DNA of 44,971 nucleotides, from positions 1-44,971 of the IMG/VR virus record IMGVR_UViG_3300018067_000117; one strand, given 5' to 3'. This stretch comes from a virus. Taxonomy: Duplodnaviria > Caudoviricetes. This document shows positions 1 to 44,779 of this stretch, piece by piece. The position numbers were made by a program, and so were the translations under genes. Within the stretch, counting starts at the first letter, position 1, and each line of letters begins with the position of its first letter. Under the pieces are notes generated by a model. It did not search any database. It saw only the letters and a list, made by a program, of their open reading frames with translations, and was not told the origin of the DNA.

Positions 1-231
1 GCAGTCTTCATGCTCCTCCAGCATGCGATCCCGGCCCCGGCCCACTTCCACCAGATCGAGCCGCTGCATGTCTTGGAGCATGTTATCCTTCACCTTGAAC
101 AGCCACTGGAAGTACCGCCGGTTGCAGCCACGAATCGACGTGAACGCCACCTGATCCAGCATCTGGTACAACTCGTCCGCCGAAATCTTCTCGGCCTGCA
201 ACACGCGCAGGACTTTGGTACTGATCTGCAT
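1..231 (-). CDS. Hypothetical phage protein (partial, runs off the left edge)
   Basis: Manual translation MQISTKVLRVLQAEKISADELYQMLDQVAFTSIRGCNRRYFQWLF...; ATG overlaps the TAA of the upstream gene (TAATG). Confidence 0.75.
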   Translation of the reverse strand, partial: MQISTKVLRVLQAEKISADELYQMLDQVAFTSIRGCNRRYFQWLFKVKDNMLQDMQRLDLVEVGRGRDRMLEEHEDC

Positions 232-497
232 TACCCTTTCTCCTTCGATGCCGACTCACCCACTCGTGAGATGCGGATCGACTTCGCCGCATGGAACGCC
301 AGCCGGTTACCGCCGACGCCCGCCTGCACCTTCACCCCCGGCAGAATCTCCACCGACTGGCCTTCGCTGATGATGATGTCATCGCCCCGATCCACCGTGA
401 CGATGACCACATTCGGATGGGCCAACGCTTTGACTTGCAGCGTGTGACCCCCGACATCAATTTTACTGCCAACACTCACTCCGATTGATAATGCCAC
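231..497 (-). CDS. CsrA/RsmA-like translational regulator (divergent, 88 aa)
   Basis: GTG start after GGAGG; beta-rich; N-term ALSIGVSVGSKIDVGG and C-term NRLAFHAAKSIRISR resemble CsrA LILTRRVGETLMIG and VRIGVNAPKEVSVHR. Confidence 0.55.
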   Translation of the reverse strand: MALSIGVSVGSKIDVGGHTLQVKALAHPNVVIVTVDRGDDIIISEGQSVEILPGVKVQAGVGGNRLAFHAAKSIRISRVGESASKEKG

Positions 498-499
498 GT

Positions 500-2467
500 T
501 TACACCTCCCCTAACAGTTGCAGTGCTTGTGACACCGATATCATCGACTTCGCTTCCGGCACATACGCGCCGATAGACAGGATGGACAGGCCCTCCGCCG
601 CCTTCCACGCCAGCACCCGCTTGATAGCCGGGTCCGCCACGTCCACGCCGTTCAGGACAATTTCCTTGTCCGAGAGGACGATGGACCGTAGGTCCGAGCC
701 CGGAGCAATCCGGCGGAACGTCGTGGCGTACTCCGCCTTCGCAATGACCGTCAGCCGGTCGAACAGCACATGCGTCTGCGGCAACGCCGCATGCAGAAGC
801 TGAAGCACCTTGCCCGTGTGGTCATGCGCCTTCAGGATGTTCAAGAACCGGTTCTCCCCTTCGGACGGTACCAGATCCAGATACAGCTTGCTCACATGCG
901 CCAGCGTTTCCACCACCTTGGTTGCCGCCGCCTGCGGATTCAGAATCTGGTCCCCCAGATAGAGCAGGGCTTCATCCATCGGGTAGGTCGGCACGTCGAA
1001 GATGACCGGTGTCACGTCGAGAGCTTCGCAGGCCATCCGGTTGAAGTCACGAATCAGCCCGTTGGGCTCCGGCTTGATGACCGGGACCGTCTCCGTCCAG
1101 ATGCGGCCCGTCTGCCCGTCGAGACTCAGCGTCTCCACGTCCTTGAACGACTCCACCGAGACACCCACGCCGACGATGCAGGCCCGGTTCATCGCCCGTG
1201 CGACGACTGCGGCATGGCTCGTAAGCCCACCCTTCATCGTCACGATGCCGACTGCCGCCTTCATGCCCGCCACGTCATCCGGTGTCGTCTCGTCTCGCAC
1301 GAGAATGCAGGGTTCCTTGCACTTGATTGCATCTTCCTTGGTGAAGACGGGCTTACCCGTCACCACGCCGCTGCAGGCCGAGATACCAAGATACGCGGGC
1401 TCCTTTTCAAACTTCGGGTCCAGTTGAACCTGCTGGGCTTCATCCAATTGCTTGATGGATACCCGCTTGACCGCTTCCTTCGCATCGATCAGCCCCTGCT
1501 TCACGAAATCCGTGGCGATCTTGATGGCCGCTTGAGGCGTCCGCTTGCCGCTACGAACCTGCAGGAGATATAACTGGCCGTCCTGCACCGTGAATTCGAT
1601 ATCCAACATCTCCCGCTTTTTGTTCTCCAGTTCGATGACCTGTTTCAACAGGGCATAGTGGAGACTGGGGTTCCACTCCTTCATCGCGTCCAGCGGGCTG
1701 GGCGTCACCGCGCCGGAGACGATATCCTCACCCTGAGCATTGACCGCAAACTCCCCGGTCACCGTCATGCCGCCGGTATCAGGGTTGCGCGTGAAGAGCA
1801 CGCCCGTGCCGCTCTGGTCATTCAGGTTGCCGAAGACCATGGCCTGCACCGTCACTGCCGTGCCCCACGAGCGGTCGTACCCGTTATCCTTGCGGTAGAA
1901 TTCCGCCCGCTCGTTGTCCCAGCTTTTGAAGACCGCTTCAATGGCGTTCAGTAGCTGGGTCTTGGCATCCGGAAATTCCACCCCGGTCTGCTCACGATAC
2001 GCATCGAGCGCAAACTTCAGATCCCCGTGGAACGACTCCTTCCGAAGACCGTTCACGACGGACCCATACATCTCCACGAGCCGCTTGAAACTGTCAGCGA
2101 AGCACTTCGGGCCGAGCTTCTGTGCCCAGAGCATGGCGTTGGCCTCTTCGATCCCCACGTTGAGGATCGTATCCATCATGCCGGGGCATGAGACACGGGC
2201 TCCAGACCGCACCGACAGCAACGGCAGATAGCCGAAGTGCTGCTCCAGCTTCTTCAGATACTCCGGTAGTGCCTTGGCAATCGCCTTCATGGTCGTCACG
2301 GGCTTCTTGTCGTACTCGGCCCAGACGGACGTGGGAATGACGAAGCCCGGAGGTACCGGCACGCCTTCGTTGGCGAGCCAGAGGAGCCCTGCGCCCTTGC
2401 CGCCCAACAATTCAGTTGAGCCTGCGACCTCACCCTTTTCGAATCCAAACGGGAAGAACTGCTGCAT
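500..2467 (-). CDS. Pyruvate,phosphate dikinase-like protein (ATP-grasp + phospho-His swivel domain; PEP/pyruvate barrel replaced)
   Basis: Motifs LLGGKGAGL, LSVRSGA, PGMMDTILN, VQAMVFGN, FTRNPDTG, DIEFTV, LQVRSGKR, GGLTSHAAVVAR; about 655 aa. Start ATG 2467 or GTG 2482. Confidence 0.9.
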   Translation of the reverse strand: MQQFFPFGFEKGEVAGSTELLGGKGAGLLWLANEGVPVPPGFVIPTSVWAEYDKKPVTTMKAIAKALPEYLKKLEQHFGYLPLLSVRSGARVSCPGMMDTILNVGIEEANAMLWAQKLGPKCFADSFKRLVEMYGSVVNGLRKESFHGDLKFALDAYREQTGVEFPDAKTQLLNAIEAVFKSWDNERAEFYRKDNGYDRSWGTAVTVQAMVFGNLNDQSGTGVLFTRNPDTGGMTVTGEFAVNAQGEDIVSGAVTPSPLDAMKEWNPSLHYALLKQVIELENKKREMLDIEFTVQDGQLYLLQVRSGKRTPQAAIKIATDFVKQGLIDAKEAVKRVSIKQLDEAQQVQLDPKFEKEPAYLGISACSGVVTGKPVFTKEDAIKCKEPCILVRDETTPDDVAGMKAAVGIVTMKGGLTSHAAVVARAMNRACIVGVGVSVESFKDVETLSLDGQTGRIWTETVPVIKPEPNGLIRDFNRMACEALDVTPVIFDVPTYPMDEALLYLGDQILNPQAAATKVVETLAHVSKLYLDLVPSEGENRFLNILKAHDHTGKVLQLLHAALPQTHVLFDRLTVIAKAEYATTFRRIAPGSDLRSIVLSDKEIVLNGVDVADPAIKRVLAWKAAEGLSILSIGAYVPEAKSMISVSQALQLLGEV

Positions 2468-2506
2468 GATGATGTGCCCCACTCCTTGGGAATTTCTGAC
2501 TTACCC

Positions 2507-2536
2507 AGTGTAGCGCACAAGCCATGCGTTTGTCAA
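2507..2536 (-). promoter_or_regulatory. sigma70-type promoter of the PPDK-like gene
   Basis: TTGACA-N18-TACACT. Confidence 0.75.
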
Positions 2537-2582
2537 CTTCTACCCGCTTGCTGGCGCTTGTCGTTCGTATGCCGACTTCACC

Positions 2583-2611
2583 ACGGTAGCACAGCCGAAT
2601 CCGTTTGTCAA
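2583..2611 (-). promoter_or_regulatory. Second, tandem sigma70-type promoter
   Basis: TTGACA-N17-TACCGT with TG extension. Confidence 0.6.
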
Positions 2612-2751
2612 GGGGTGGTCTTTTTGCCCTTCAGGATGTTGGCGTACTCCGGTTGCTTCACCGGGACTTCCGTCCAGATGAACCGGTCCCCACCCTCCGG
2701 CAGCTTCGGCGGTTCCGGCTTCTCGTCTTTTGTGAGAATTTTCAAGGCCAT
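2608..2751 (-). CDS. Small hypothetical protein (47 aa, not in the ORF track)
   Basis: MALKILTKDEKPEPPKLPEGGDRFIWTEVPVKQPEYANILKGKKTTP; ATG directly follows the upstream TGA. Confidence 0.6.
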   Translation of the reverse strand: MALKILTKDEKPEPPKLPEGGDRFIWTEVPVKQPEYANILKGKKTTP

Positions 2752-4101
2752 TCAGTGTGTTCTCCGGGGATCGCTGCTTCCCCCACCAATATACTCCAAG
2801 TAGACTTCAACAATCGGCACGTCCTTGAGCGTGGGGTCACCTGTCCGATAGGGCTCGCCGCGCTCGACGCGGACCACTCGGAACTGAGCACCGCTGCCAA
2901 GCAGGACTTCGCTCTCCGTCCGTCGTCCTTCTTTTCCAGCTTCTAGATCCTTCGCATCTACCGTGGGGGCCTGCGTGTAGTCGGTGACTTGCCACAACTC
3001 CGGATTCTTCTGCCAGAACAGGTCCGCCAGTTCTTTCGGTCCCATCGGTTCCGGATTCGGGATGCGGGGAAACTCGTGGCGGAGCCGTCGCACGCTCTCC
3101 ACGGACGCCACCTTCGTGCCCGCTGGGAGCACGATGTGGAACCGCACGGCAGACCCGACTTCGTCCTGATGTTCCACCAACACGCCAGAGTGCGAGCCGA
3201 ATCGGTGACCGATGCTTTCCCACTTCCCCAGTGCCGGATAGCTCTTGGCGCGTCCCCCAGCGTCTCCGACCATCGTGGAGGTCAGGCCCTTCTCTTCCCA
3301 GACCGTGCCGTCTTCGGCCATCGCCTGTAAGTCTTCTATCGACACACCGGGCAGATAGGCCCCCCGTTCCACCGTAATCGCTTCAGGTAACTCGTACCCA
3401 TGCACGCCAATGGCTTCGTCCAGCTTGTCTGCTGCCGCTTGCACTCGCGCCAGACGCTCCAGATCTGGGCCTGCCCGCTGGATGCTGAACATCATCGTCG
3501 GTCCACCTTCGACCGGACGGTAGTAGGCGTTGATGACGATGCGTCCGTCCTCTACCCGGTGATATGGATCGTCCGGATCGTAATCTTTCGCACCATGTTT
3601 CCCCATCGGATGCCCAAAGCGGGCAATAGTTTCAGGTGTCACTTCATCGCGGGGATCGACCGGGTAGCCGGTTTTATACTCGCCCTCTTTCACTTTGATG
3701 CTGGGCACCCATTCGTTCTTCTCCGGATCCCAGCCCACCCGTCGCATTTCCTCTGGCGTGGCTGGCCGCACGAAATGATCGACAATCGGCACCTTATAGG
3801 TGCCCCGTCGCAGATCGTTGACGTCGTGGTAGCCGAAGCCTGCATAGTCATCCAGCGCCTTGGCGTGCTCGTGCGGGAGGTTCTTCGCCCACTCCGCCAC
3901 TGGGCCTTGCTCGTGCCACTGGTAACCCTCTTCACTGGTGAACGTGCGCCCGCTCGTCTTCACCCACTGCCCACCCGTCGATGAGCCCTTTGGGCCACGG
4001 GGCTGATTGGGATCGTACTTCTTCGCTCTGGAGACGATGAAGAAATCCCCCGGCTTCATTTCGAAGCGATCCGCGTTGGGGTCTTTTGCAATTGAGTGCA
4101 T
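2752..4101 (-). CDS. VIP2/Alt-like (R-S-E clade) ADP-ribosyltransferase with N-terminal PRG tag
   Basis: ALDDY...VNDLRRG helix, ITVERG, GLTSTM, TESEVLLGSGAQFRVV; N-term KYDPNQPRGPKGSSTGGQW. Confidence 0.8.
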   Translation of the reverse strand: MHSIAKDPNADRFEMKPGDFFIVSRAKKYDPNQPRGPKGSSTGGQWVKTSGRTFTSEEGYQWHEQGPVAEWAKNLPHEHAKALDDYAGFGYHDVNDLRRGTYKVPIVDHFVRPATPEEMRRVGWDPEKNEWVPSIKVKEGEYKTGYPVDPRDEVTPETIARFGHPMGKHGAKDYDPDDPYHRVEDGRIVINAYYRPVEGGPTMMFSIQRAGPDLERLARVQAAADKLDEAIGVHGYELPEAITVERGAYLPGVSIEDLQAMAEDGTVWEEKGLTSTMVGDAGGRAKSYPALGKWESIGHRFGSHSGVLVEHQDEVGSAVRFHIVLPAGTKVASVESVRRLRHEFPRIPNPEPMGPKELADLFWQKNPELWQVTDYTQAPTVDAKDLEAGKEGRRTESEVLLGSGAQFRVVRVERGEPYRTGDPTLKDVPIVEVYLEYIGGGSSDPRRTH

Positions 4102-4334
4102 CAGTAGAGCTTTCCCGGTGGGGCCTGCTCATCGGTCTTCATCCACTCGCCGCCCCACACTTCCAGCACGTACAGGGCCTTACGAGCGTTCTCCGTGGGG
4201 GCATAATAGCCGTTGTTCGGGGGCTGCATCTCTGGCGTGTTCAGCACTCGCTCCAGTTCCCGATTATCTGGGACGGCCCACACCCCATTGTTGACGGTCG
4301 CCAGTTCCCCGGACCCCAATCGAATCGTAATCAC
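4101..4334 (-). CDS. Hypothetical protein
   Basis: 77-aa ORF translationally coupled at both ends. Confidence 0.7.
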   Translation of the reverse strand: MITIRLGSGELATVNNGVWAVPDNRELERVLNTPEMQPPNNGYYAPTENARKALYVLEVWGGEWMKTDEQAPPGKLY

Positions 4335-7018
4335 CGGTATTTCCCCTGCATAATGTCGAAAATCAAATTGAAGTGCTCGGGCCGCTCGCGGGCAAACGTG
4401 ATGGGGTCCGCCAGATACGACTCCACGCCTGTGGACACCATCTCCGTGGAGATGTCATGCGGATAGAGCTTGGCCGAGTACGGGTCTGGAAACTTGCCCC
4501 GCAACGCTTCCTCATCGTCTTCCAGCGCAGGGCTCACCGTCTTCAGCTTGTAGACCTCACGCGGCTTGTTCGCCAGTTGCTCTCGCACGTTAATGGCCGC
4601 TTGCCGTGCCGCGCTACTGTTCAATTCAATGTGGTGCGCCACTTCGTGATGCACCGTACGCTCCAAGTCTCGTCCCTCACCAATCGCAATCCCCGCAATG
4701 GTGGCGTGGGCTCGACGGGTAGCTGATTTTTCCAACTTCAATATGGCCGGAATAGCATACGTCCCGTCCGGGTTTTTGACGAACGGTCCCTCCGTGCCTC
4801 CGAAAATCTCACGGAGCTTGCCCATCTGGTCTTCCGGTATGTTGGTCGGTACGAACGCCCCGGACCCGTCGAACCGCCGGAACTGCTCCAGTGCTCGTCT
4901 CGCACCCGCTGCTACCCCCGGATGCAACGGATTCTTCGGATCGTCCGTGAATTCCAGCTTCGACCGCTCCGCTGGTGCTACCTTCAACAGTTCTCTCGCC
5001 TGTTGATTCAGCGCATGCCGCTTCTTCGACGCCACTTCGAACCGCTCGTGGAACACCTTCTCCAGTGCGTTCGCTCGCTGGTAGGACTCCAGCTTCTTCG
5101 CAGCGGCTCCGTCCGCCTTCAACGGCTTCTTCCGGCCCTTACTCAGATCCTCAGACCACGTTTTCCATGCGTCCGCCAACTCCACCCGCATCCGGTCAAG
5201 AATCACGCCCTCACGGTCAGATCGCTTGACCAGCGCCATGAAATCCCGACGCTTCTGCTCGTGCGGGGACCGATCCCCCCGTGTCTCGGAGAACTTCCCT
5301 TCGGCGTCTCGCGGGTGAAGAACCTCGTCCCATCGTAGCACTTTGACAAATGTTACGTCAACCTTGCGGGCTGTTCCTGACTGGAGAACCTTCACGGTCA
5401 TCGTGTTACCCGGACCCTTGCTCACCACTTCGAACCGAGTACCACGGGGAAGAATCACTTCCTCTTGATGATCGTACCCGTGTGCGCCCAGTTCTTCGTT
5501 CACGTCGATGTGACCCAACCCCTTAGGAGCCAACACAGTCAAAATCGAATGATTTTCCGCTCTATACGCCCCGATATCCAGACGAATGTCATCAATTTTT
5601 GATGAATTCTTCGTAGTAGACACGTAACCATCATCTTGATACACGTCCCCAACATTTAGACCGTCCATCACGTAATTCGGCACAGTCCTAGTCAAAGACG
5701 TATCTTCAGATAAGGTGTTATTCCGCATGTGAGCATCAAGCAACGCTACTTTGTCGCCCAATAGACTCTCAAGCTCCACCCCTTGATCCCATGTTTCCCC
5801 TTGGGCTCGATGTCGCTGACCCGTCCTTCGAAGCGTGTCGTTGAGATAACTCGCACCACCCTGCACATAATCAAAGATGGCGAAGTTGATATCGTGCCCC
5901 CGCTGGAGTCGGTCGTACTCCGCTTTATCGAAATCCTTCGGCGCACCTTCGATGATCTTTGTCCACTGGCCTTCGGCATCACGGGGCTGAGCAGGACTAT
6001 ACTTCAGGGCCAACCGGGTCAGGGCTTCAATCGCCGCGATTTGCTTGCGGCCCTTGAACGTCCACCGTCCGGACGGCTCCTGCGTCATGTACTGGGTGAT
6101 GTAGGGATAGGCGGCAGCGTCCGCTTGGTAGAACGCCAGTTGCAGCGTGACGAAGTCTGATGGGTTCATCCCCACCTTCTTCGCCTTCGCCGTCAGCTTC
6201 GCCGCAACGGAGACATCTGTCTCGTCACTCCAGCCTCGGAACAACGGCCCGATCAGGTCGTGGTTCAGTAGCTCCGTGGCCAGTGTGATATCCTTCTCGC
6301 TGAACCCCTCCTCACGAAGCACTTTTTGAAGGATGGGAATGGTGTGCTCGTGTTGATGCTCCTTGCCTTCGCCTTCCTCAATCGCTTCTGCCTTCCCGAT
6401 ATCGTGCAGAGCAATGGCCGACGCCATCAGCGTCTCAACATCACTCCCGAAACGGTCGGAGATACTCGCTAGGTCTTCACGGGATAGCTGCGTTTCCCAC
6501 TCCCGGCCTACGTCCGTGGTGTGGGACTCGATGCTGCCCATCTCGGTGTGTGTCGAGCGGGGATAGTGCTTCGCCGTGACCGGGTACTTGGCCTTGAACG
6601 CTGCGATCTGCCCGCCCACTTTCGCCCACTTGCCAGACGCATCACGGGGCTGAGTCGGATCAAACTTGACAATCCATTCTGGACGCACACCTCCAGCAAA
6701 ACGAGCCGTGCGGGAACCTTTGGGACTCTTGCGGCCCGGTGTCAGGGGCTTCTCAAAAAAGAACGCCGACTTCGGTGCCCGAATTTCCACCACCGTGGCT
6801 CCGGGTGTCGGCTCCGGATAGTCCAGTCCCTCCGCGAACCGCTGAGCCTCTTCACGGGATTCCGTGGCCCAGACCAGTCCCTCCTTACCGGGCTTCAGTC
6901 CCTCTCGATGGATGGCCTCCACGTCTCGCTCACGGGTGCCGTGGTACAGCGTGACGAACTGTCCTTTGACATCCCGTGGGTGCTGGGAAGCATCCCACTT
7001 CAAGAGAGCCGCAAACAT
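4331..7018 (-). CDS. Polyvalent protein: Tpt1/KptA-like ART + HD domain + VIP2-like ART + zincin metallopeptidase
   Basis: LYHGT...GLKP; ALHDIGK...H...NHD...QAD; LTRT...YVSTT...QEEVILPRGTRFEVV; HHEVAHHIE...E. Four PRD-x2-G-x-W/F repeats precede the domains. Probable start ATG 7018. Confidence 0.8.
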   Translation of the reverse strand: MFAALLKWDASQHPRDVKGQFVTLYHGTRERDVEAIHREGLKPGKEGLVWATESREEAQRFAEGLDYPEPTPGATVVEIRAPKSAFFFEKPLTPGRKSPKGSRTARFAGGVRPEWIVKFDPTQPRDASGKWAKVGGQIAAFKAKYPVTAKHYPRSTHTEMGSIESHTTDVGREWETQLSREDLASISDRFGSDVETLMASAIALHDIGKAEAIEEGEGKEHQHEHTIPILQKVLREEGFSEKDITLATELLNHDLIGPLFRGWSDETDVSVAAKLTAKAKKVGMNPSDFVTLQLAFYQADAAAYPYITQYMTQEPSGRWTFKGRKQIAAIEALTRLALKYSPAQPRDAEGQWTKIIEGAPKDFDKAEYDRLQRGHDINFAIFDYVQGGASYLNDTLRRTGQRHRAQGETWDQGVELESLLGDKVALLDAHMRNNTLSEDTSLTRTVPNYVMDGLNVGDVYQDDGYVSTTKNSSKIDDIRLDIGAYRAENHSILTVLAPKGLGHIDVNEELGAHGYDHQEEVILPRGTRFEVVSKGPGNTMTVKVLQSGTARKVDVTFVKVLRWDEVLHPRDAEGKFSETRGDRSPHEQKRRDFMALVKRSDREGVILDRMRVELADAWKTWSEDLSKGRKKPLKADGAAAKKLESYQRANALEKVFHERFEVASKKRHALNQQARELLKVAPAERSKLEFTDDPKNPLHPGVAAGARRALEQFRRFDGSGAFVPTNIPEDQMGKLREIFGGTEGPFVKNPDGTYAIPAILKLEKSATRRAHATIAGIAIGEGRDLERTVHHEVAHHIELNSSAARQAAINVREQLANKPREVYKLKTVSPALEDDEEALRGKFPDPYSAKLYPHDISTEMVSTGVESYLADPITFARERPEHFNLIFDIMQGKYR

Positions 7019-9507: not shown

Positions 9508-9790
9508 GTTTCTTCCTCCACCCTTCCACGACACTGCTAGTCACCAACGCCCGGACACCGGGTCTGATTCTCCGGTGCGAGTGCGGAGTAGGTGTCGGAA
9601 GCGACTCAGCGGTGGTCAATTCCACGAACAGACTCGTCACCAAACTCCTGCACTCAATTGCAGTCATTGTGGCCTGTAGCCGCACGGTCACCCCAGTGCT
9701 GGTGACTTCTTCCCCTTCAATAACCGGTGGCTCAATGACACCCGCGCCGGTCGTCAGGCCATAGAGCCCCGGATAGAGCCCGCCGAGCAT
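9500..9790 (-). CDS. Hypothetical structural-module protein
   Basis: 96 aa, coupled to the collagen gene (TGATG). Confidence 0.6.
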   Translation of the reverse strand: MLGGLYPGLYGLTTGAGVIEPPVIEGEEVTSTGVTVRLQATMTAIECRSLVTSLFVELTTAESLPTPTPHSHRRIRPGVRALVTSSVVEGWRKKHG

Positions 9791-12720
9791 CAGAAATACC
9801 AGCCCCAGCTACCGGCTTGCACCACCACATCGGTGTTGGCCAATTCGTTGGCGAAGCGGACGGCGAACGTCCCATTCGCCGTGCAGACATAGCGGCCTTG
9901 GATGATGTGAATCAAATCCACGGCTGGCGTCACCGTGCTGGTCAAGAGCGTCATGTCATCCCGCACCGTGTTGTGCCGCTCCGTCCACGTCGCCACGCCT
10001 GCGGCCCCACTGGCAATCACCTGATTCAGATGGTGAAAGCTCAGGGCTCCTGCGGGACAGTTCACCCCGCACTTGTGGCCCGTGTTTGCCTGTGCCGACT
10101 GGAACACCACGTAGAAATAGAAGGCATACACCTGACCACTGACAACGGGGAACGTGAGGTTCGTCACATCCGCGAACACCCCGGCTCCGGCGTTGATCGT
10201 CTGGTTCGCTGTCTTCTTCAACAGGTTGAACAGCACCGGGCCGGGGATGCCTTGGATGCCCTGAATCCCCTGTGGCCCCACCTCTCCGGTGTCACCCTTC
10301 GGACCCTGAGCCCCGGTATTCCCCTGCGGACCCTGAGCGCCTTGGGCTCCGGTGTCGCCCTTGATGCCTTGCGGTCCCTGTGGACCGGTCACCGGGGTTC
10401 CGGGTACGCCCTGTGGTCCTGCTGGTCCTTCCGGCCCTGCTGTCCCAGTGTCACCCTTGATACCCTGCGGCCCTTCTACCCCCTGTGCGCCTTGAGCACC
10501 CGTAGCACCGGTTGGGCCTTGTGGCCCTGCTGGACCCTGAGGACCGGCAGGACCGGCTGGGCCTTGTGGAAACGCCCCTGCGTCGGCCCATTCACCCGTG
10601 TCTGTGTCCCAGACCCACAGATGCCCGGTGTCGGCCACAATCCATGCGTCACCGGGTTCTCCGGTTGGTGGTAAATCGGCAACGGTCGCTGCCGTGCCCT
10701 GCAGATCGATGCCTGCGCCCTCGGGGCCTTCTGGACCTTCGGGGCCTTCGGCACCGGGCACACCCTGTACGCCTTGTGGACCAGCAGGGCCTTCTGGTCC
10801 CGTGGGACCGGCAGGACCGGCCTGTCCTTCGGCTCCCGGTATACCCGGTACACCCTGTGCGCCTTGTGGACCGACGGCTCCCTCGGTTCCTTCCAGTCCA
10901 GAGGGACCGGCCACACCCTGTGGACCTTGGGGGCCTTCTGGACCCGTGGCTCCGACCGGGCCTGCTGGCCCCATCACCCCCGGTGACCCTTGGGCTCCCG
11001 CAGGGCCTTCAGGACCGTCCGCGCCCGCTGGTCCGACTGGTCCTACTGGACCTTGTGGCCCCGGATCACCATCGGTGCCACGGAAGCCTCGTGGGCCTTG
11101 GTCACCCTGTGCGCCCGGATCACCTTGGGGACCGATGTCTCCCTGATCGCCCTTTGGTCCTGCGGGGCCTTCTGGACCCGTCGCACCGGCTGGTCCCTCC
11201 GGTCCCGTCCATCCCTGTTCTCCTTGCGGTCCTGCTGGTCCAGCCGCTCCCGGAGCCCCTTGAGCACCTTGTGGACCCGTTGCACCGTCTGCTCCAGCCG
11301 GTCCAATTGGTCCCGCAGCACCTGTCGGGCCTGCTGGACCTTGATCACCTTGTACACCAGCTACTCCTTCGGGGCCTTGGGGTCCAACAGCGCCAGTATC
11401 GCCTTGAGTTCCTTGCGGACCTTCGGGACCAACTGGTCCCTGAATTCCTTGGGGGCCTTCTGGACCAGCTTCCCCAGTTTCTCCAACCGGACCAGCGGGT
11501 CCGATGGGTCCACTTTCACCTTGCGGGCCGACGTCACCGGTATCTCCTTTCGGGCCTGCGGGTCCGGGCGGGCCTTGCGGACCTTCTGGTCCGGGCGGTC
11601 CTTGGCTCCCCGGAGGACCGGGCACACCACCCGGACCCTGTGGACCGGGCTCTCCCTGATCACCCTTTGGACCCTGTGGACCAATAGGACCGGGAATCGT
11701 ATCCGCGCCTTCCGACAAGAGCACCACCGCGAGTCGGCTGTTGTGCCCAAACTCCGCCACGCCTCCCGGTCCACTCTGCGACACCAACGACACCGCTACC
11801 GAGAACCAGTCCGTGGAGGGTATGACTTGCTCGATCTGCCAGACTTGATGCTTCACGGCCACGTCAGCATCCTGAATCAGAATGCGAGCCGTGGGCGGCG
11901 TCATCTCAAAAAACACATGCGCGTCGAAGCCTTCATCCGTCAACCAGTCCACGGCGATCAGAGTTGCTTCGGTCTGATTGGCCGCATTCCACCGGATCTT
12001 CCCGGCTCCGGGGTCTTGCATCTGTTGGTTATTCGCATCAGCCTTGTAGAAAAACACCGATGAGGATGGGGCGATGGGCAGATCACTGATATCACTCGCC
12101 GGGATCTTGTCCAGCGTCGAGATAACGCCCGTGCCCTCCATACTCCGCATGTAGCCAGTCGGCAGTTCTGACAGGGCCTGAGCGTTCGGCAGGTACTCTT
12201 CTCCGCTCGCACGTCCAATGGCGTTCCGGCTTTGCACAATGAACGGGGTGGCTCCTGCTCCGGCCACATCCAACCGTCCATCCGTGATCGTCAGATAATC
12301 GCCCAGTGCAATTTCTTCGGACGGTCCCGGTCCAGTCTCCCGGCCTCTGAGTAGCTGACCGGTGGTAAAGGGCTTGCCCTCTTGGGCCAACGTCTGTAAA
12401 TCCAGCAGCGTCTTATCGGTGATCGTGGCGGCGATCAGGTCGCCTGCGACGATGCTCCGGGCTGTCGTGCCTTCTTGAGCCCGTTGCAACGTGAACGTGT
12501 CGCCGTCTCTCGCCGTGACACGAGCAATTTCAGCATTGGTGGGATCGGGGAGCACGTCTTTGGGCCAGACGGTGGCGTTGAAGGGCGGGTCAGGAAAGCG
12601 ATCCCCGTGCCCGGTGGGGACCATCAACTCTGCGCCGGATACAGCGGGCCACGGAGCTTCGGCTACCGCCGATACCGCAAAATTCTTGTAGTCATCCACG
12701 GCAAGAAGCTCCCTGTGCAA
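9790..12720 (-). CDS. Collagen-like tail/head fibre protein
   Basis: Two long Gly-X-Y tracts, internal GDAWIV...GHLWVWD module, N-term [19 protein letters not shown]-terminal beta domain; TTG start. Confidence 0.9.
10240..11695 (-). repeat. Collagen (Gly-X-Y)n coding repeats
   Basis: 9-nt periodicity (GPQ/GPA/GPE triplets), interrupted at about 10575-10715. Confidence 0.95.
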
Positions 12721-15869: not shown

Positions 15870-15911
15870 GGTGGTTGGCCCCTCCTTGGGCACTTCCGAC
15901 TGACAAGAACA

Positions 15912-15940
15912 AGTATAGCACCTTCGGAGGGGCTTGTCAA
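15912..15940 (-). promoter_or_regulatory. sigma70 promoter
   Basis: TTGACA-N17-TATACT with TGn extension. Confidence 0.85.
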
Positions 15941-15956: not shown

Positions 15957-16169
15957 CTATTTGCTGTTGCTGTACTCCAAAAACTCCAAATGCCGCTGCG
16001 CTTCCTCCCGAATCTCCTCCATCGTCGGACGGGGTTTTTCCAACACGTATTTGCAAAACTCCTTCAGCCGACTCCGACACCGGGTCAACTTGGTTCTGGC
16101 GCTCCGCCTATCCGACATCGGAACGACCTTCTTGCTCTTCTGTTGCGGTACGAACACTGTCATGCTCAT
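15957..16169 (-). CDS. Hypothetical basic protein
   Basis: SD GGAGG; 70 aa. Confidence 0.6.
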   Translation of the reverse strand: MSMTVFVPQQKSKKVVPMSDRRSARTKLTRCRSRLKEFCKYVLEKPRPTMEEIREEAQRHLEFLEYSNSK

Positions 16170-16184
16170 GCGGCCCTCCGTGGC

Positions 16185-16529
16185 TTATTTTTCGATATCT
16201 CGATGCTCGACGGAGACGCCTAGCTCCTGTGCCAGCCGCTCCGCCAGATAGACACTTCGGTGATGCCCACCCGTGCAGCCAATGTAGGCGACTTCCGTAC
16301 CCGGAGACGTCACCTGTTGCTGCACGTAGCGGTACTTCGCATTGAATTCTGGGGTCTTCTGAATCTCCGCCTGCACCGCTGGATCGGTGCCTAGCTTGGA
16401 GCGTAGGCGACGATCCCGATACGGGTTGCGAAACAGGCTCCGCACATCCACCACGACCACTCCGGGGGCCGTCTGGTCCGGAGGCTCAGGATGCTTAAAG
16501 CCAAAGCTGACAATCTTCTTCAACGTCAT
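16185..16529 (-). CDS. Stand-alone RapZ C-terminal domain protein
   Basis: IVSFGFKH, VDVRSLFRNPY, IGCTGGHHRSVYLAERL; no N-terminal P-loop. Confidence 0.85.
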   Translation of the reverse strand: MTLKKIVSFGFKHPEPPDQTAPGVVVVDVRSLFRNPYRDRRLRSKLGTDPAVQAEIQKTPEFNAKYRYVQQQVTSPGTEVAYIGCTGGHHRSVYLAERLAQELGVSVEHRDIEK

Positions 16530-16556
16530 CGCTGCCCTCCGTGGCAATCACTTGCA

Positions 16557-18140: not shown

Positions 18141-18242
18141 GGGGCCACTCCATTGACTGGGAGGATATCAAGCTGCCTCCCGTCAGCCGTCGCTCTGCTA
18201 ATCTACCCCCGGTATTGGCGACCGTCACCGGATGTAAGAACC

Positions 18243-20362: not shown

Positions 20363-20384
20363 CGCTCCTCCTTGAGCCTCACCC

Positions 20385-23054: not shown

Positions 23055-23081
23055 GTGTCACTCCTTTGACGTGAGGAAACC

Positions 23082-23654: not shown

Positions 23655-23690
23655 GCTGCCCTCCTTGGCAATTGATTGCCGACTCCACCC

Positions 23691-24597: not shown

Positions 24598-24663
24598 GTT
24601 TTGCGTCTCCTGAAGCGCCCCACTCCTTGGGGCTGGGTTGCCGTAGCGCCGACTGACAAGACC

Positions 24664-24982: not shown

Positions 24983-25192
24983 CGCCGCCCCTCCTTGGGC
25001 CTAAATTACGGGAATTTCATTCCGGGGTGACCCTGCCCGCCACAGGAGTCCGCCACCCCGAAGGTCCGCGCTCGTTTGCCGATTCAGATGGGGCCACGGT
25101 ACCTGTCGCCCTGTCGGTTTGGTTGCCCTCCCCGCTCGCTCACCCTACTCCCGGCTCTTGTTATCGCCTCACTCGTGCCTCCCTTCAACCGA
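24983..25192 (-). ncRNA. Candidate structured leader / small RNA
   Basis: About 210 nt between promoter and ATG, no long ORF, long stem TTCGGGGTGGC...GTCACCCCGGAA. Confidence 0.35.
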
Positions 25193-27289: not shown

Positions 27290-27337
27290 GCTCTTCCTCC
27301 GCCCACTCCTTGGGCACTGAATTCACCACCGAAGACC

Positions 27338-27547: not shown

Positions 27548-27566
27548 TTGTTCACTCCTTGAAAAA

Positions 27567-27595: not shown

Positions 27596-27818
27596 TCGCC
27601 CTTAGCAGCACCGTGGCCACGACAGCCGCCCCCACCAGTACCCAGCATCCGATGAACAATACGCTTCCCCCAAGAAACCGCAACGGGCTTAACATTGGAT
27701 ATCCCTCCTTGGACAAGATGTCGGCGGAAGTGAAAGGTTCCGTTTCCGTAAGACCCGGACTTAGCAGGGGCGTTATCCCCCTGACCTCAGTAGTCTCCTG
27801 CTCCCCACCGACTCAACC

Positions 27819-27848
27819 AGTGTAGCACACAACTTTGGCGTTTGTCAA
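27819..27848 (-). promoter_or_regulatory. sigma70 promoter (leftward of a divergent pair)
   Basis: TTGACA-N18-TACACT with TG extension. Confidence 0.8.
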
Positions 27849-27870
27849 ATGCAATCAATTGCCTTGTGAT

Positions 27871-27899
27871 TTGACAAATCTTTTTCGTTGTGCTAAGAT
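27871..27899 (+). promoter_or_regulatory. sigma70 promoter (rightward of a divergent pair)
   Basis: TTGACA-N17-TAAGAT with TG extension. Confidence 0.8.
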
Positions 27900-27949
27900 C
27901 ATTGGAGCATCGAACCTCAGCACCGCTCATGGAGGAGCGAAAGGAGCCT

Positions 27950-33938: not shown

Positions 33939-34189
33939 CAGGGTTTCCGATTCAACTGCTCCTGTTGCTCGATGGTGGCCGGGACCGTCCCGCTGCGGCC
34001 ATACCACTGTTCACGCCGGGTGATGCCATCGTTCCATGCCTCCAGACAGCGGAGCAGGTACTGGGCCAAGATGAAGTCTGGTGTGTTGGACCCATTTTCC
34101 TGACTGTAGCGATTGATCAGGCTCTCCAACTCGCGTTCAAACGTCGGCGGGCGTTGGTCGATACCGGGTTTGCTAGGATCGTAGTCCAC
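33938..34189 (-). CDS. Conserved phage hypothetical protein
   Basis: FERELESLINRYSQENGSNTPDFILAQYL; GTG after AAGGAG and its own promoter (frame stays open up to 34396). Confidence 0.7.
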   Translation of the reverse strand: MDYDPSKPGIDQRPPTFERELESLINRYSQENGSNTPDFILAQYLLRCLEAWNDGITRREQWYGRSGTVPATIEQQEQLNRKP

Positions 34190-34223
34190 GGCACTCCTTG
34201 CTGCAATCAATTGCAAAGGGGCG

Positions 34224-34252
34224 ATTATACTCGGCGGGGACGTTGTTGTCAA
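34224..34252 (-). promoter_or_regulatory. Perfect-consensus sigma70 promoter
   Basis: TTGACA-N17-TATAAT. Confidence 0.9.
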
Positions 34253-34860: not shown

Positions 34861-34912
34861 AGTCTACCGCTAAGCATAGATTCTTGTCAACCGCTAAGCA
34901 TAGCCCTGTCAA
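34861..34912 (-). promoter_or_regulatory. sigma70 promoter with tandem operator-like repeat
   Basis: TTGACA-N18-TAGACT; CCGCTAAGCATAG...TGTCAA twice (34867-34890, 34891-34912). Confidence 0.75.
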
Positions 34913-38336: not shown

Positions 38337-39128
38337 TTAGCCCTCGACCGGGGCCACCGTAATGTCGTACATCGGGAACTTCTCCGCGATGCGCTTCAGG
38401 AGCGGTTCGAAGCCCGTGGTGTCAATGACCTCGTCCAGCGAGAACGGCTTCTGGACGGTGTTCGTGCCACCCACGTACCCGGCGCAGATGTTCTCCAGCG
38501 CCACGGTGTCGTACTCCGTGTGCAGTTCGCCCTTGGCCTTGGCCAGCGCCTGCGTGACCGCTTCGGCCTGATCGGGCTTCAGCTTGAACGTCATCTTGAC
38601 GACTTCGTCCGTGGTCTTGGCGGTCTTCTCGTCGCCCTCCGTGGGCTTGAGCGCCTTGATCGCCGCCTGCAGTTCCACGACCGTCAGCTTCTCGGCCTTG
38701 GCCACCCAGTCGTCCACGTTCTCCGGCGTGATGATCGGAGCCAGATCCTTGAGCTTGGTCCAGCCCAGATGGCTGACCTTGTCCCACGGGATCATCTTGG
38801 TGACGAGGTTGTCGTAGATGCTGACGAGATAGCGGGCCTTGCGGCCCTGAAAGCCGTACTTCTCGTACACGAAGTCATCGAAGTAATCGAAGCCTTCGAA
38901 CCACGAGTTGTCGTTGATGAGCTTGAGCACCCCACCGAGCTTGAAGTAGTTGACTTCAATGTTCTCGGCCAGATTCTCCGCCATGTTGAGCGCCTTCGTC
39001 TTGCTCAGGCTCTCCACTTCATGGGCGATGTCGAGAATCAGGTTGCCCGTCTTCTCGGTCTTCTTCTTCCCGATGGTCGTGGTGTCGGGCTTTTCCTCGA
39101 CTACCGCGCCTGCCGCTGCTTCTGCCAT
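38337..39128 (-). CDS. Probable DNA-binding protein (DUF3102-like helical domain)
   Basis: YFKLGGVLKLI...FDDFV...GFQGRKARYL...LGWTKL; strong codon bias. Confidence 0.6.
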   Translation of the reverse strand: MAEAAAGAVVEEKPDTTTIGKKKTEKTGNLILDIAHEVESLSKTKALNMAENLAENIEVNYFKLGGVLKLINDNSWFEGFDYFDDFVYEKYGFQGRKARYLVSIYDNLVTKMIPWDKVSHLGWTKLKDLAPIITPENVDDWVAKAEKLTVVELQAAIKALKPTEGDEKTAKTTDEVVKMTFKLKPDQAEAVTQALAKAKGELHTEYDTVALENICAGYVGGTNTVQKPFSLDEVIDTTGFEPLLKRIAEKFPMYDITVAPVEG

Positions 39129-39165
39129 GTGAATTCCTCCGAATTCCAAAAATTGAACCTGACAT

Positions 39166-39219: not shown

Positions 39220-39978
39220 CTACGCGGGGACTGCCTCCGGCTGGGCCTTCTTGCCCTTCTTGCCCTTGGCCACTGCCTTGGGCGCGGGGGGCGCGGCCTT
39301 CGTCGCCTTGGCCTTCTTCTCCCCGGAATCGAAGGTGATGCCCGGAAAATCCTTCTTCATGCGGGCAAACTTGGCATCCATCACCGTGACCGGGGGCTCA
39401 CCGGTCAGATCGAAGCACAGCCGCCAGTACACGTCGATGGCTCCGGACAGGAACGAGCGGATCTGGTTCTGCCGCTCCATCTCTGCGGCCTGCTCAGCGG
39501 CCACGTCCACGACCTCCACGTTCCGCTCTTCCTTGGCCCCGCCCTTCTGGGGCATGGGGACCATCTTCTTGACCGTGGTCATCGTGGGGCTCACGAACAG
39601 GCTCTGCTCCGCCTGCCGAAGGATATCCGTCGCCAGACTGTCCAACTGCAGGATGGCGGATCCGCGAGTGCCTACGAGCTTGGCCTTCTTGGTGCTCGAT
39701 GGCAGCTTGACCTTCAGCACGCGAGCAATCGCCGTCAGGTCGTAGCCGATATCGCCCAGTGTCGCCGTGGCGTGATCCTTCATCTCCTGTGTCTGCGGCA
39801 GACCCAGCAGATACTGTCCCATGATCTGCAGCAACTGCCCCGTGTGGCCTTTGAGCCCCACGGCACCCCGCACCACCTGTGTCCGCACCGTGTTCTTCGA
39901 CACCATCCGCAGAGCGGTCTTGGTGGCCTTCACCGGCAGCGTCTTCGCCACATTCCGTCGAAATGTCCCGATTTGCAT
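39220..39978 (-). CDS. Hypothetical protein with Lys/Ala-rich tail
   Basis: SD AAGGAG; ATG coupled to the RuvC stop. Confidence 0.7.
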   Translation of the reverse strand: MQIGTFRRNVAKTLPVKATKTALRMVSKNTVRTQVVRGAVGLKGHTGQLLQIMGQYLLGLPQTQEMKDHATATLGDIGYDLTAIARVLKVKLPSSTKKAKLVGTRGSAILQLDSLATDILRQAEQSLFVSPTMTTVKKMVPMPQKGGAKEERNVEVVDVAAEQAAEMERQNQIRSFLSGAIDVYWRLCFDLTGEPPVTVMDAKFARMKKDFPGITFDSGEKKAKATKAAPPAPKAVAKGKKGKKAQPEAVPA

Positions 39979-40508
39979 CACATCAACTCCTTTCCACTCC
40001 TTGGAGGGTCTAACATCGTTCCAAGACTGGCCCACCCAATAGTTACGCCTTGCACATTCCGAATCGCATCCCACCCGAGTTGTGCCATCTGGGCGAGTGC
40101 GTACGCATCGACAATATCGTGTGAATGACTCTGATACGCCCAGCGTTGCTTGACGGACAGGGCCATCATGTCCTTGGTCGCATTGCCCTTGCCCGTGGTC
40201 CACTTCTTCAGGACCGTGGGCGGGACTTCCACCCATGGAATCCCCAGCGTATAGAGCACGCTACGCACCATGGTGCCGACTTCGACCAGCTTTACGAACG
40301 CACCGACGTTCCTGACGTAGGCATAGCCCTCAATGGCCACGAACGCTGGTTGCCAGATTTGCAACGTCTCTGCCACCTCGTTGGCAATCAGTTGCAATCT
40401 GAGGTAGCCCCGCTCGTTGGGCACCTGAACCGTCTTGCCCCGATCCTCCTCATCCCCAACCAGCGCCATGCCCGTGCAGGTCGCACAATCAAGCCCTACG
40501 GTCTTCAT
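39978..40508 (-). CDS. ruvC: RuvC-like Holliday junction resolvase
   Basis: VGLDCA..TG, VAIEG, VPPTVLKKW.TGKGNATKD, DIVDAYALA. Confidence 0.9.
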   Translation of the reverse strand: MKTVGLDCATCTGMALVGDEEDRGKTVQVPNERGYLRLQLIANEVAETLQIWQPAFVAIEGYAYVRNVGAFVKLVEVGTMVRSVLYTLGIPWVEVPPTVLKKWTTGKGNATKDMMALSVKQRWAYQSHSHDIVDAYALAQMAQLGWDAIRNVQGVTIGWASLGTMLDPPRSGKELM

Positions 40509-41827: not shown

Positions 41828-41835
41828 TGCAATAG

Positions 41836-43320: not shown

Positions 43321-43561
43321 CGGGCTTCTTCTCGATCTTCAACTTCTTTGCTGCTTTTGCAGCCTCTTCGCGGGTCTTCGCCGCTGGCTTTTCCACCACA
43401 GCCTCCAACGGAGCCGGATTCTCTGAGGCTTTGGACCGGGACTCGGTCGTGGCGTCCACGTTGGTCTTGGTCACATCCGGATCGGGCTTGATCGCGTCCA
43501 CATCGACGTTGGTCGTGGTGACACTCACGTTCGACTTAGACGTTGGGGTCTTCTGATCCAT
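43313..43561 (-). CDS. Low-complexity hypothetical protein
   Basis: SD GAGGT; MDQKTPTSK...; coupled. Confidence 0.55.
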   Translation of the reverse strand: MDQKTPTSKSNVSVTTTNVDVDAIKPDPDVTKTNVDATTESRSKASENPAPLEAVVEKPAAKTREEAAKAAKKLKIEKKPDG

Positions 43562-44729
43562 CTTCCACCTCAACTTCTACAACCGTGCCCGGTGCTACGT
43601 CCTTGGGCGAGTAATCAGTTTCTTCAACCAGCACCATCTTGTCCTTGTAGGACTCGATCACCATCCCCTGCAGCACCCGCTTGAACTTCTCGTCCTTCAT
43701 GTACCGCTCTTGCATGGCGGTCAGCGTCGGAAACTCCGTCTTCTGAATGACATAGCCCTTGGGCGTCTTTGCCAGCAAATTCAGGGCCTGCAGATGCGAC
43801 TTCACCATGTTGAAGCTGTCGGTGTCCCCGATCTGCAAATCATCATGGGCATGCACACACAGGCTGAAGTCAAAGGCCGCTGCGCGGACGGGAATCTTCG
43901 CCTTCTTCACCGTGACCTTGGTGTCCTTGAACATCACCGTGTTGGTGGCTTTGTTGAGGACGTTCTTGGCGCTCAGACGCACTCGGAGACTGGACAGGAA
44001 CTTCTGGGCTTCGCCTCCGGGCATGGTTTCCGGATCCCCAAACATCACGCCGGGTTTGAACCGGGTCTGGTTGATCAGCAACACACAGGGATCATGGTCC
44101 CGCTTCTGCTCTTCACAGAAGGCGATCATCAGCTTGTTCACCATGCGCTTGATCAAGAGAGCAGACGATCCAATGTCGTATTGCTCGACGCTGTTGGCGA
44201 TTTCCTTCGACGCGATGAGTCCTGCCATTGAATCAACCACGACAATAGCGACATCCTCAGCGCGTACCAAAGCATCAACAAGGTCGATGGCTTCTTCACC
44301 ATAGCCCGCCTGCACGACATGCAGGGCCTTGGTGTCCACGCCCATCTTCTCGGCCCAGATGGGATCGAAGGACTGCTCCACGTTGACCCAGATGGCCTTG
44401 TTGCACGGGGGTGTTTGCCGTTGCGCGGCAGCGACAGCCTTGAGGCAGAGATTGGTCTTGTTGCTCGATTCTGGTCCATAGACGATGCTGTATCGCCCAC
44501 AGGGAAATCCTCCGCCGGAGTAGAAATCGAATTCGAAGATGCCCGTAGGCAAACGGCGGACCACAGGGATCTTGTTGCCCCGGACCACCACCTTATCGCC
44601 TTTGTCTTTGCGAATGCCTGCAAGGACGTCGTTCAACGTGCCGGATGGCGGCTTGCCCCTCACGTCTTTCTTCTTGACAGGCGAGTCGGGCACAGGCTGA
44701 CCCGTCGAAGGTTTCACCACAAGCGCCAC
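43536..44729 (-). CDS. recA: RecA/UvsX-like recombinase
   Basis: PTGI..FD...GGGFPCGR, YGPESSNKT, VVVDSMAGL, INQTR, ETMPGGEAQKF. Confidence 0.92.
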   Translation of the reverse strand: MALVVKPSTGQPVPDSPVKKKDVRGKPPSGTLNDVLAGIRKDKGDKVVVRGNKIPVVRRLPTGIFEFDFYSGGGFPCGRYSIVYGPESSNKTNLCLKAVAAAQRQTPPCNKAIWVNVEQSFDPIWAEKMGVDTKALHVVQAGYGEEAIDLVDALVRAEDVAIVVVDSMAGLIASKEIANSVEQYDIGSSALLIKRMVNKLMIAFCEEQKRDHDPCVLLINQTRFKPGVMFGDPETMPGGEAQKFLSSLRVRLSAKNVLNKATNTVMFKDTKVTVKKAKIPVRAAAFDFSLCVHAHDDLQIGDTDSFNMVKSHLQALNLLAKTPKGYVIQKTEFPTLTAMQERYMKDEKFKRVLQGMVIESYKDKMVLVEETDYSPKDVAPGTVVEVEVEDGSEDPNV

Positions 44730-44779
44730 ATGCACTCCTTGCGAACGGGTAGACTGACAGATACAGAAGGGCTTGTCAA

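Follow-up and report, generated by a model that had tools for sequence, protein, structure and literature searches.

The 44,971-nucleotide (nt) stretch of DNA analyzed here (IMG/VR record IMGVR_UViG_3300018067_000117, positions 1 to 44,971; hereafter the window), a 45-kb fragment estimated to represent ~39% of the genome of a tailed phage, carries numerous short hairpins that display the sequence A(N)GGAG in their loops, at or near the ribosome binding sites of the phage's own genes. Here and in related phages, these hairpins are enriched, conserved and linked to promoter-proximal genes, and they co-occur with a gene for a small protein related to the translational regulator CsrA. By analogy with bacterial Csr systems, we lean toward the reading that this CsrA-like protein, encoded by open reading frame (ORF) 231-497, binds the hairpins in the leaders and so runs a Csr-type translational regulon of the phage.

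A preliminary description of the window had listed 18 hairpin sites represented by 16 sequence strings, all of which are present as described, with 17 on the minus (coding) strand, which holds 79 of the 82 called genes, and one on the plus strand. Across 100 dinucleotide shuffles, the number of A(N)GGAG hairpins on the minus strand averaged 2.2 and never exceeded 6, compared with 17 observed; a single one is present on the plus strand. Requiring at least three Watson-Crick pairs beneath a loop of AGGAG or ANGGAG, and taking as Shine-Dalgarno (SD) sites those 4 to 16 nt before a called start, we observed a stem at 14 of 32 A(N)GGAG sites at SD distance versus 2 of 65 inside genes (Fisher 1e-6); note that genes were taken from a simple ORF caller, such that start positions may be wrong. 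Chance or SD composition as the source of the hairpins is ruled out by an arm-swap null, in which 5′ arms are exchanged among SD sites while SD composition is kept: here, 2.3 hairpins were expected and the observed 14 were reached in 0 of 2000 swaps. The excess over shuffled background that the preliminary description had anticipated is thus clear. Since hairpins with arbitrary loops were not enriched in leaders (45/82 versus 37 ± 4 in shuffled sequence for the window; 61 versus 60 for the uncultured relative G004), the signal is specific to the A(N)GGAG loop. It is also strand-specific, keeps to SD spacing and is found downstream of −10 boxes, and we therefore rejected a hairpin promoter acting at the DNA level. 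As had been noted, the SDs of the virion genes at 7499, 7870 and 9184/9190 lack a stem, and a second SD follows the hairpins at 24617, 27301, 27924 and 39993. Among the listed sites, the weak one at 18144 has two Watson-Crick pairs and one G-U pair, and the one at 39131 has a GGAG tetraloop. Similar hairpins are also found within ORFs at two places (27229-27241 and 5102-5117). The features of the window that matter here are as follows.

231..497, minus strand: CsrA-related protein of 88 amino acids (aa), candidate regulator binding the hairpins; predicted to be all-beta and likely a lopsided tandem CsrA.
500..2467, minus strand: PPDK-like gene, first in the operon with the CsrA-like gene.
2477..2491, minus strand: AGGAG-loop hairpin in the PPDK leader, with other stems in 6/6 clade genomes and RcZahn.
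2507..2536, minus strand: predicted sigma70-like promoter of the PPDK operon, TTGACA-18-TACACT.
15878..15891, minus strand: AAGGAG hairpin over the SD of 14778-15869; promoter-like site 15912-15940.
16173..16184, minus strand: ACGGAG hairpin over the SD of 15957-16169.
16185..16529, minus strand: stand-alone RapZ C-terminal-domain (RapZ-C) protein (PF22740, E 6e-21); rival candidate ligand and also a hairpin target.
16532..16547, minus strand: ACGGAG hairpin over the SD of the RapZ-C gene.
18144..18157, minus strand: weak ATGGAG hairpin before the DNA ligase gene; promoter-like site 18243-18271.
20364..20377, minus strand: AAGGAG hairpin over the SD of 20153-20362; promoter-like site 20385-20414.
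23057..23070, minus strand: AAGGAG hairpin over the SD of 22638-23054; promoter-like site 23082-23111.
23656..23671, minus strand: AAGGAG hairpin over the SD of 23127-23654; promoter-like site 23691-23720.
24617..24633, minus strand: AGGAG hairpin of 6 bp, 5′ of the separate SD of 23740-24597; promoter-like site 24664-24692.
24987..25000, minus strand: AAGGAG hairpin over the SD of 24689-24982.
27300..27316, minus strand: AGGAG hairpin 5′ of the separate SD of 27083-27289; promoter-like site 27338-27367.
27551..27563, minus strand: AGGAG hairpin over the SD of 27386-27547; promoter-like site 27567-27595.
27700..27715, minus strand: AAGGAG hairpin over the SD of 27552-27695; promoter-like site 27819-27848.
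27924..27939, plus strand: ATGGAG hairpin 5′ of the separate SD of the plus-strand gene 27950-28276, a layout kept in G004 and G005; promoter-like site 27871-27899.
34191..34201, minus strand: weak AGGAG hairpin over the SD of 33938-34189; promoter-like site 34224-34252.
39131..39146, minus strand: GGAG tetraloop hairpin of 6 bp over the SD of 38337-39128; ANGGAG loops in the orthologues of G004, RcZahn, TM16 and Y1_11.
39993..40005, minus strand: AGGAG hairpin 5′ of the separate SD of 39220-39978; hairpin in 6/6 clade genomes, second SD in 5.
44732..44742, minus strand: weak AGGAG hairpin over the SD of the RecA/UvsX-like gene 43536-44729; identical 3-bp stem in 5 genomes.

The window encodes a terminase, a RecA/UvsX-like recombinase, resolvases, a ligase, methylases and the PPDK-like enzyme. 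By PPDK and terminase, its closest cultured relatives are the Stenotrophomonas phages DLP3 and DLP5, SIO-2-type Vibrio phages, Rhodobacter phage RcZahn and the Rhizobium phages RHph_TM16 and RHph_Y1_11 (TM16 and Y1_11); the near uncultured relatives analyzed are G001, G004, G005 and G006 (112-120 kb) and the 63-kb fragment G007, with G002, G003, G008 and G009 outside the analysis. Genomes were read as 20-kb tiles that leave out the final 0.3-1.7 kb of RcZahn, TM16, Y1_11, VH2 and P1312; L338C and RHph_I4 were covered over 100 kb of ~109 kb, leaving out the last 8-10 kb. Eight of these relatives proved hairpin positive. Comparing SD sites with sites inside genes, stems were present at 15/57 versus 7/189 in G001, 16/69 versus 5/207 in G004, 24/76 versus 4/171 in G005, 16/59 versus 1/205 in G006 and 14/41 versus 2/54 in G007, and, among the cultured phages, at 26/76 versus 3/174 in RcZahn, 25/52 versus 3/120 in TM16 and 18/56 versus 8/160 in Y1_11. 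In each of the nine hairpin-positive genomes, the window included, the observed count was reached in 0 of 1000 arm swaps. This is not a general trait of alphaproteobacterial phages, as four such control phages were negative.

The preliminary description had suggested looking for covariation in related phages, and hairpins at orthologous genes are indeed kept with different stems. Sixteen gene families carry a hairpin in at least three genomes. One example is the PPDK leader, where a hairpin with varying stems and loops is found in 7/10 family members from hairpin-positive genomes as opposed to 0/6 from others. Overall, 32 of 48 stem positions show more than one pair type, a count that is conditional on the hairpin being present and is descriptive rather than a test. 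Focusing on the 116 hairpins with at least four pairs, we counted AGGAG 46, AAGGAG 32, ACGGAG 19, ATGGAG 15 and AGGGAG 4 times. Loops of 5 and 6 nt with the sequence A(N)GGAX, placed on a stem, are the site classes of RsmZ and hcnA that are bound by RsmE (PMC4005645). Beyond hairpins that overlap the SD itself, 16 of the 1239 leaders of hairpin-positive phages, compared with 0 of 1330 leaders of ten others, present the hairpin 5′ of a separate SD, and this layout is kept in relatives at 39993 and 27924. The hairpins hence behave like binding sites, and the separate-SD layout is the strongest sign that the loop is selected as a binding site and not merely as an SD.

As to the genes involved, a TTGACA-type promoter-like site lies within 150 nt of 11 of the 16 hairpin genes of the window, compared with 5 of the 66 others, and the link between promoters and hairpins is present in all five relatives (P 1e-2 to 4e-9). 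Conversely, 13 of the 19 promoter-like sites are followed by a hairpin, and 13 of the 18 hairpins initially listed fall 4-104 nt after a promoter-like −10 box. Median upstream gaps are 37-82 nt for hairpin genes versus −1 to 17 nt for other genes. For RcZahn and TM16, the link rests on these intergenic gaps, because a sigma70 scan of the main strand yields just 2 and 8 sites, respectively. When seven near-complete genomes are summed, 13 hairpin genes fall in the portal-to-lysis module, for 90 SD-bearing genes, compared with 135/342 elsewhere; the windows behind the two counts are not quite identical, and the 13 include boundary genes. The virion module is thus depleted of hairpin genes without being empty, and we rejected strictly early targets. 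Exceptions with a hairpin are RcZahn gene 20, located between capsid and head-tail adaptor, RcZahn gene 45, encoding a lytic transglycosylase, and one tail-module gene in G004 and G005. The targets are mainly operon-first genes behind sigma70-like promoters, not strictly early ones, because lysis and head/tail-module genes also carry hairpins. Of the timing switch for early-gene shut-off envisaged in the preliminary description, the promoter-proximal targets are upheld and "early" is too narrow a term. A region of its own is 27787-27950, where divergent promoters (27819-27848 on the minus and 27871-27899 on the plus strand) flank a palindromic DNA box; the plus promoter drives a 108-aa gene that is likewise reversed in G004 and G005.

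The candidate ligand, ORF 231-497, is a conserved 88-aa frame with 57 matches including itself (53-100% identity), in a family of 261 representatives at E ≤ 0.001. Weak matches to the CsrA family PF02599 were obtained for 12/57 close and 57/114 wider family members (E ≤ 0.1, best 2.7e-6), with no other family matching more than 2 members; of five cultured relatives scanned, the PG28 member alone passed the cut-off (27.7 versus 27 bits). By profile, the gene is placed directly after PPDK in TM16 (EVB27_132), RcZahn (gene 7) and PG28 and as the second gene after PPDK in DLP5, and the gene that follows PPDK in Vibrio phage J26 is annotated as CsrA. In the ESM Atlas, the first match (0.90) is to a viral cluster in which 12% of members carry CsrA, and the best named match of the structural model in BFVD is "Carbon storage regulator" (E 1e-4, TM 0.64). 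Residues 2-37 align weakly to E. coli CsrA 1-36, and residues 63-80 to CsrA 29-46. Within the latter segment, R65, A70, P71, I76 and R78 are conserved at 91-100% and match E. coli R31, A36, P37, V42 and R44, which means that the family retains the R44-equivalent arginine after the AP motif as R78. In 114 sequences, conservation is 100% for A70, 96% for R65, 92% for R78 and 91% for P71, the last being Ala in the window protein.

Chains of RsmN/RsmF (PDB 4kji, 4k59) match the model with Z 3.6-3.8 and a root mean square deviation of 2.1-2.3 over 46-47 aligned positions within residues 1-82, among unrelated rows. We regarded the top-ranking rows, class II fusion proteins and FHA domains with Z 5-7, as generic resemblance among beta folds. 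With Foldseek, nothing in the PDB matched at E ≤ 0.001 and no CsrA chain was among the listed entries, and searches of PDB sequences with two family profiles (A1, A2) found no CsrA. When modeled alone, the C-terminal half gave three strands and a 3-residue turn. We infer that ORF 231-497 is a lopsided tandem CsrA with one binding surface, although an insertion as in RsmN fits equally well. The protein is CsrA-related, yet not assigned to PF02599.

How might such a system work? The A(N)GGAG hairpins, on or just 5′ of the RBS of many operon-leading genes, would serve as operators. They would form in the mRNA, the weak stems requiring a ligand to stabilize them, and the CsrA-like protein would bind the loops through its N-terminal strand and the C-terminal R65/A70/I76/R78 segment, as CsrA/RsmE biology suggests. 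Once bound, whether at the SD itself or 10-25 nt upstream, it may keep the 30S subunit from loading and would thus presumably repress translation. As the protein builds up from the PPDK operon, transcripts made by host RNA polymerase from host-type promoters would be damped, turning down recombination, the PPDK operon, small accessory genes and some assembly-chaperone and lysis genes. The CsrA-like protein would limit itself only via polarity or coupling from the PPDK leader. No RNA data set was listed for positions 200-5200 of the window, which has no bearing on expression. In G004, the genes that come next in the PPDK operon (L034:4661-5194, L034:7168-8136) are tyrosine-phosphatase-like or encode a protein weakly matching the ribosomal L7/L12 C-terminal part (E 2e-4), and their leaders often have hairpins.

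Several observations weigh against the CsrA-like protein as the reader of the hairpins. Neither the window protein nor its halves has a Pfam match, the PF02599 cut-off not being reached. Its AlphaFold model (predicted local distance difference test score 88) shows nine strands and no CsrA helix, whereas the CsrA core has five strands and then a helix (PMC7366521). R6/R7 equivalents are not kept, these positions being V7 (85%) and a variable residue; alignment to E. coli CsrA by hhalign is weak (probability 7-16%, E 0.002-0.005); and no alignment is obtained between the two halves (E 0.1). Of the CsrA-like protein first proposed, what stands is the kinship, on the strength of the weak PF02599 matches and conserved R65/A70/I76/R78; a canonical CsrA, given nine strands, no helix and no R6/R7, it is not. 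On the RNA side, the preliminary description had given an ANGGAN loop closed by a C-G pair as the established CsrA/RsmE site. The loop class is that of RsmE-type A(N)GGAX sites, but among the same 116 hairpins the closing pair is A-U in 66, C-G in 44 and another in 6, with C-G often the second pair under A-U, whereas RsmZ loops close with C-G (PMC4005645). The predicted probability of the closing pair is ≥0.5 in 8 of 16 window hairpins and <0.15 in 6, which would seldom form unaided. Finally, the hairpin at 2477-2491 does head the PPDK/CsrA-like operon, as the earlier proposal of autoregulation held, but in every hairpin-positive genome listed, the CsrA-like gene is preceded by an unstructured SD of its own. 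Because this SD has no hairpin, feedback via 2477-2491 needs polarity or coupling and would be indirect only. In the window, 2 nt separate the PPDK stop from the CsrA-like start, and in G001 and G004 the two overlap.

The distribution of gene and hairpins cuts both ways. The CsrA-like gene is present in 9/9 hairpin-positive genomes, and none of eight informative phages without it is enriched: RcDurkin 2/30, JP1 0/37, L338C 1/60, RHph_I4 1/58, HJ05 3/55, P1312 2/30, Tarzan 1/13 and BFK20 1/26. These controls include two Rhizobium phages and, with RcDurkin, a phage that shares its host strain with RcZahn. KarBoss and RP13, searched for the gene only, have none. Five relatives that the preliminary description had overlooked carry the gene with no enrichment of hairpins (DLP5 3/61, DLP3 3/53, PG28 1/59, VH2 0/53, J26 0/15). 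The DLP5 protein keeps the C-terminal motif in full despite the lack of hairpins, and DLP5, J26 and PG28 did not reveal any other loop motif. On TerL and RecA trees, the hairpin-free gene carriers sit among hairpin-positive lineages. Because the genomes are related, the pattern amounts to only ~2-3 independent changes, and it would fit one origin and two losses in gammaproteobacterial phages. A further observation is that the CsrA-like gene's own leader in PG28 (20620) and VH2 (20751) has a 4-bp stem around TAGGA, with A(N)GGAG hairpins absent genome-wide; autoregulation via a shifted motif is possible there.

The most specific challenge comes from a gene that the preliminary description had also missed, the stand-alone RapZ-C gene 16185-16529, whose product exceeds the PF22740 cut-off by far (75.3 versus 27 bits). 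In an all-family profile, RapZ-C was the only family present in 7/7 complete hairpin-positive and 0/10 hairpin-negative genomes, and a hidden Markov model check gave 9/9 versus 0/10; the family is absent from both hairpin-free lineages, DLP and Vibrio. Within the group, its distribution thus matches the hairpins exactly, better than that of the CsrA-like gene; the RcZahn member is gene 140. Its own leader carries a hairpin in 4/9 genomes as scored by script, and that of TM16 has one with a G-U pair. RapZ-C, alone or with the CsrA-like protein, might therefore be the ligand, repressing translation or routing mRNA to RNase E, and RapZ's C-terminal domain does bind RNA (PMC5737377). We nevertheless judge this unlikely: three informative, unrelated RapZ-C phages without the CsrA-like gene are not enriched (2/30, 1/13, 1/26), the nine phage members have no K/R cluster at their C-termini and so lack the basic tail with the lysines/arginine that RNA binding by RapZ requires, and no GGA-loop preference is reported for RapZ in the available part of the paper (PMC5737377), the loop grammar being that of CsrA. 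RapZ-C remains the main rival or a partner of the CsrA-like protein. The phage RapZ-C proteins also have a CX5R motif. Streptomyces phage TP1604 (57,168 nt) was left out of the RapZ-C controls because its genome has no GGAG (0 on both strands, versus 1318 GGAC and 305 GAGG), an avoidance that suggests a host restriction or nuclease target.

Host CsrA/RsmA, the other reader named in the preliminary description, would tie phage expression to the Csr state of the host and leave the phage protein with another role. The loops are textbook RsmE sites (PMC4005645), the phage gene is kept in hairpin-free phages, and CsrA occurs in 62/301 sampled alphaproteobacterial genomes; a profile search of genome contigs found no relative of the CsrA-like gene and hence pinpointed no prophage or host, and a PPDK scan of viral sequences found nothing. 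However, TM16 and Y1_11 are strongly enriched although CsrA is above cut-off in 0/201 genomes of the order of Methylobacterium, which we take to include Rhizobium (R. capsulatus was not searched), such that host CsrA is an unlikely reader in Rhizobium phages. Moreover, the phages without hairpins are those of gammaproteobacterial hosts expected to have CsrA: Stenotrophomonas presumably does, and Vibrio is listed among CsrA-bearing bacteria (PMC7366521). We regard this explanation as quite improbable overall. Our preferred reading, i.e., the phage protein as the reader, can be extended into a scenario in which a single-chain, one-site CsrA that arose by tandem duplication runs a private regulon, maybe with a RapZ-C partner, in CsrA-less hosts, and moves to CsrA-bearing gammaproteobacteria twice led to loss of operators and RapZ-C because host CsrA would silence the phage; we offer this as a tentative and rather doubtful idea.

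Could the hairpins act without any regulator, short 5′-proximal stems tuning initiation or protecting operon-first mRNA ends, with the loop being merely the SD? GGAG is found in any SD-loop hairpin by construction, hairpins cluster at operon-first genes as the upstream gaps show, and second GGA motifs are not more common in hairpin leaders (110/177 versus 206/338). Yet this predicts neither the selective enrichment of the A(N)GGAG class over hairpins of any loop, nor the retention of the loop where it is not the SD (16 versus 0), nor the lack of hairpins in phages of the same hosts and the same guanine-cytosine content, and we consider it improbable. Alternatively, GGAG loops might mark mRNAs for, or shield them from, a GGAG-specific endoribonuclease like T4 RegB, which cleaves GGAG within early-gene SDs (PMC3014915). 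The loop indeed ends in G in 72/76 leader hairpins and in 13/16 of those that are not the SD. However, structure protects against RegB (PMC3014915) and the sites here are structured; shielding leaves hairpins 5′ of an exposed SD unexplained; no nuclease family tracked the hairpins; and PHROG scans of 80 window ORFs and 78/149 called G004 genes revealed no RegB-like family. Such a nuclease appears very improbable.

The window has additional features. A palindromic DNA box, TGCAAT(C/T)(A/G)ATTGCA, occurs seven times (GCAA-N4-TTGC starts at 12717, 16544, 23668, 27851, 34203, 37167 and 40384), overlapping or abutting the 5′ arm of a hairpin at 16544, 23668 and 34203. With 7-45 copies in 17/18 related phages, hairpin-free ones included, and 1 in J26, it is likely a transcription-factor site common to the wider group. 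At the minus-strand promoter-like sites 18723-18752 and 34861-34890, the −10 box ends 5-6 nt before an SD-less ATG, making leaderless mRNAs probable. Two large minus-strand ORFs, 4331-7018 (E 3e-5) and 2752-4101 (E 1e-3), weakly match ADP-ribosyltransferases; the former additionally gives weak HD and ART-PolyVal matches, and both probably encode polyvalent host-takeover proteins. Lastly, 9790-12699 (minus strand) encodes a 969-aa collagen-like tail-fibre protein with several repeats.

Of known systems, CsrA/RsmA/RsmE is closest: the RsmE sites of the hcnA RBS and RsmZ share a 5- or 6-nt A(N)GGAX loop that sits immediately on a short stem, at or near the SD (PMC4005645), and the phage family keeps the R44 equivalent and the R31/A36/P37/V42 segment. 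The phage protein differs in its 88 aa, nine predicted strands without a helix, score below the Pfam cut-off and lack of R6/R7, and the phage hairpins in being mostly A-U-closed, in having G nearly always as X and in targeting the phage's own genes. An Rfam search of the window, covering ~39% of the genome, gave no match, including none to a Csr/Rsm antagonist small RNA (sRNA). RsmN/RsmF of Pseudomonas aeruginosa is, similarly, a rearranged CsrA relative (PMC3791407), but a chromosomal global regulator and not a phage gene; its Z values here are below those of unrelated folds, and the phage insertion is predicted as beta strands instead of a helix. The stand-alone protein 16185-16529 resembles RapZ's C-terminal domain in passing the PF22740 cut-off and differs in lacking the N-terminal domain and basic tail, and the known targets of RapZ are the sRNAs GlmY and GlmZ (PMC5737377).

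Phage csrA genes as such are already published, including the syntenic gene after PPDK in J26, which is in print as ORF99 (PMC12038007); 30 of 2517 phages encode one (PMC7366521), and many have been proposed as host-manipulating or anti-CRISPR factors (PMC8450108). Their proteins are described as highly similar to bacterial CsrA and correlated with CsrA-bearing hosts, and the available text of these papers (PMC8450108, PMC7366521, PMC12038007) does not report operators in leaders of the phages themselves; the cultured phages with hairpins in the present set have alphaproteobacterial hosts. The main text of the RcZahn paper mentions neither CsrA, hairpin, motif nor RapZ (PMC8601537), and a literature search, mostly outside subscription journals and without supplements, found no report of phage-CsrA operators in a phage's own leaders, that is, no self-directed regulon. 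In role, the system would be a Csr-type control analogous to T4 RegA, likewise one small phage protein, which represses initiation at ~30 phage mRNAs; RegA belongs to a different family and its sites are A+U-rich, unstructured and include the AUG, as opposed to structured GGAG loops (PMC3014915).

While published phage CsrA genes have been read as tools against the host, our contribution is the presence/absence pattern, the relatives with a gene but no operators, and RapZ-C as a rival. The strong signal in cultured phages whose lab hosts are non-pathogenic, namely RcZahn of Rhodobacter capsulatus and RHph_TM16 and RHph_Y1_11 of Rhizobium, makes the proposal directly testable, with DLP5 and PG28 as natural gene-without-operator contrasts. 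If true, phage-wide translational control would have, in addition to T4 RegA, a second architecture assembled from Csr components, and a small, possibly monomeric repressor with a short operator would make a useful translational switch for CsrA-less bacteria. Should the single-chain scenario with its losses also hold, the regulator content of the host would constrain phage leader design and host range.

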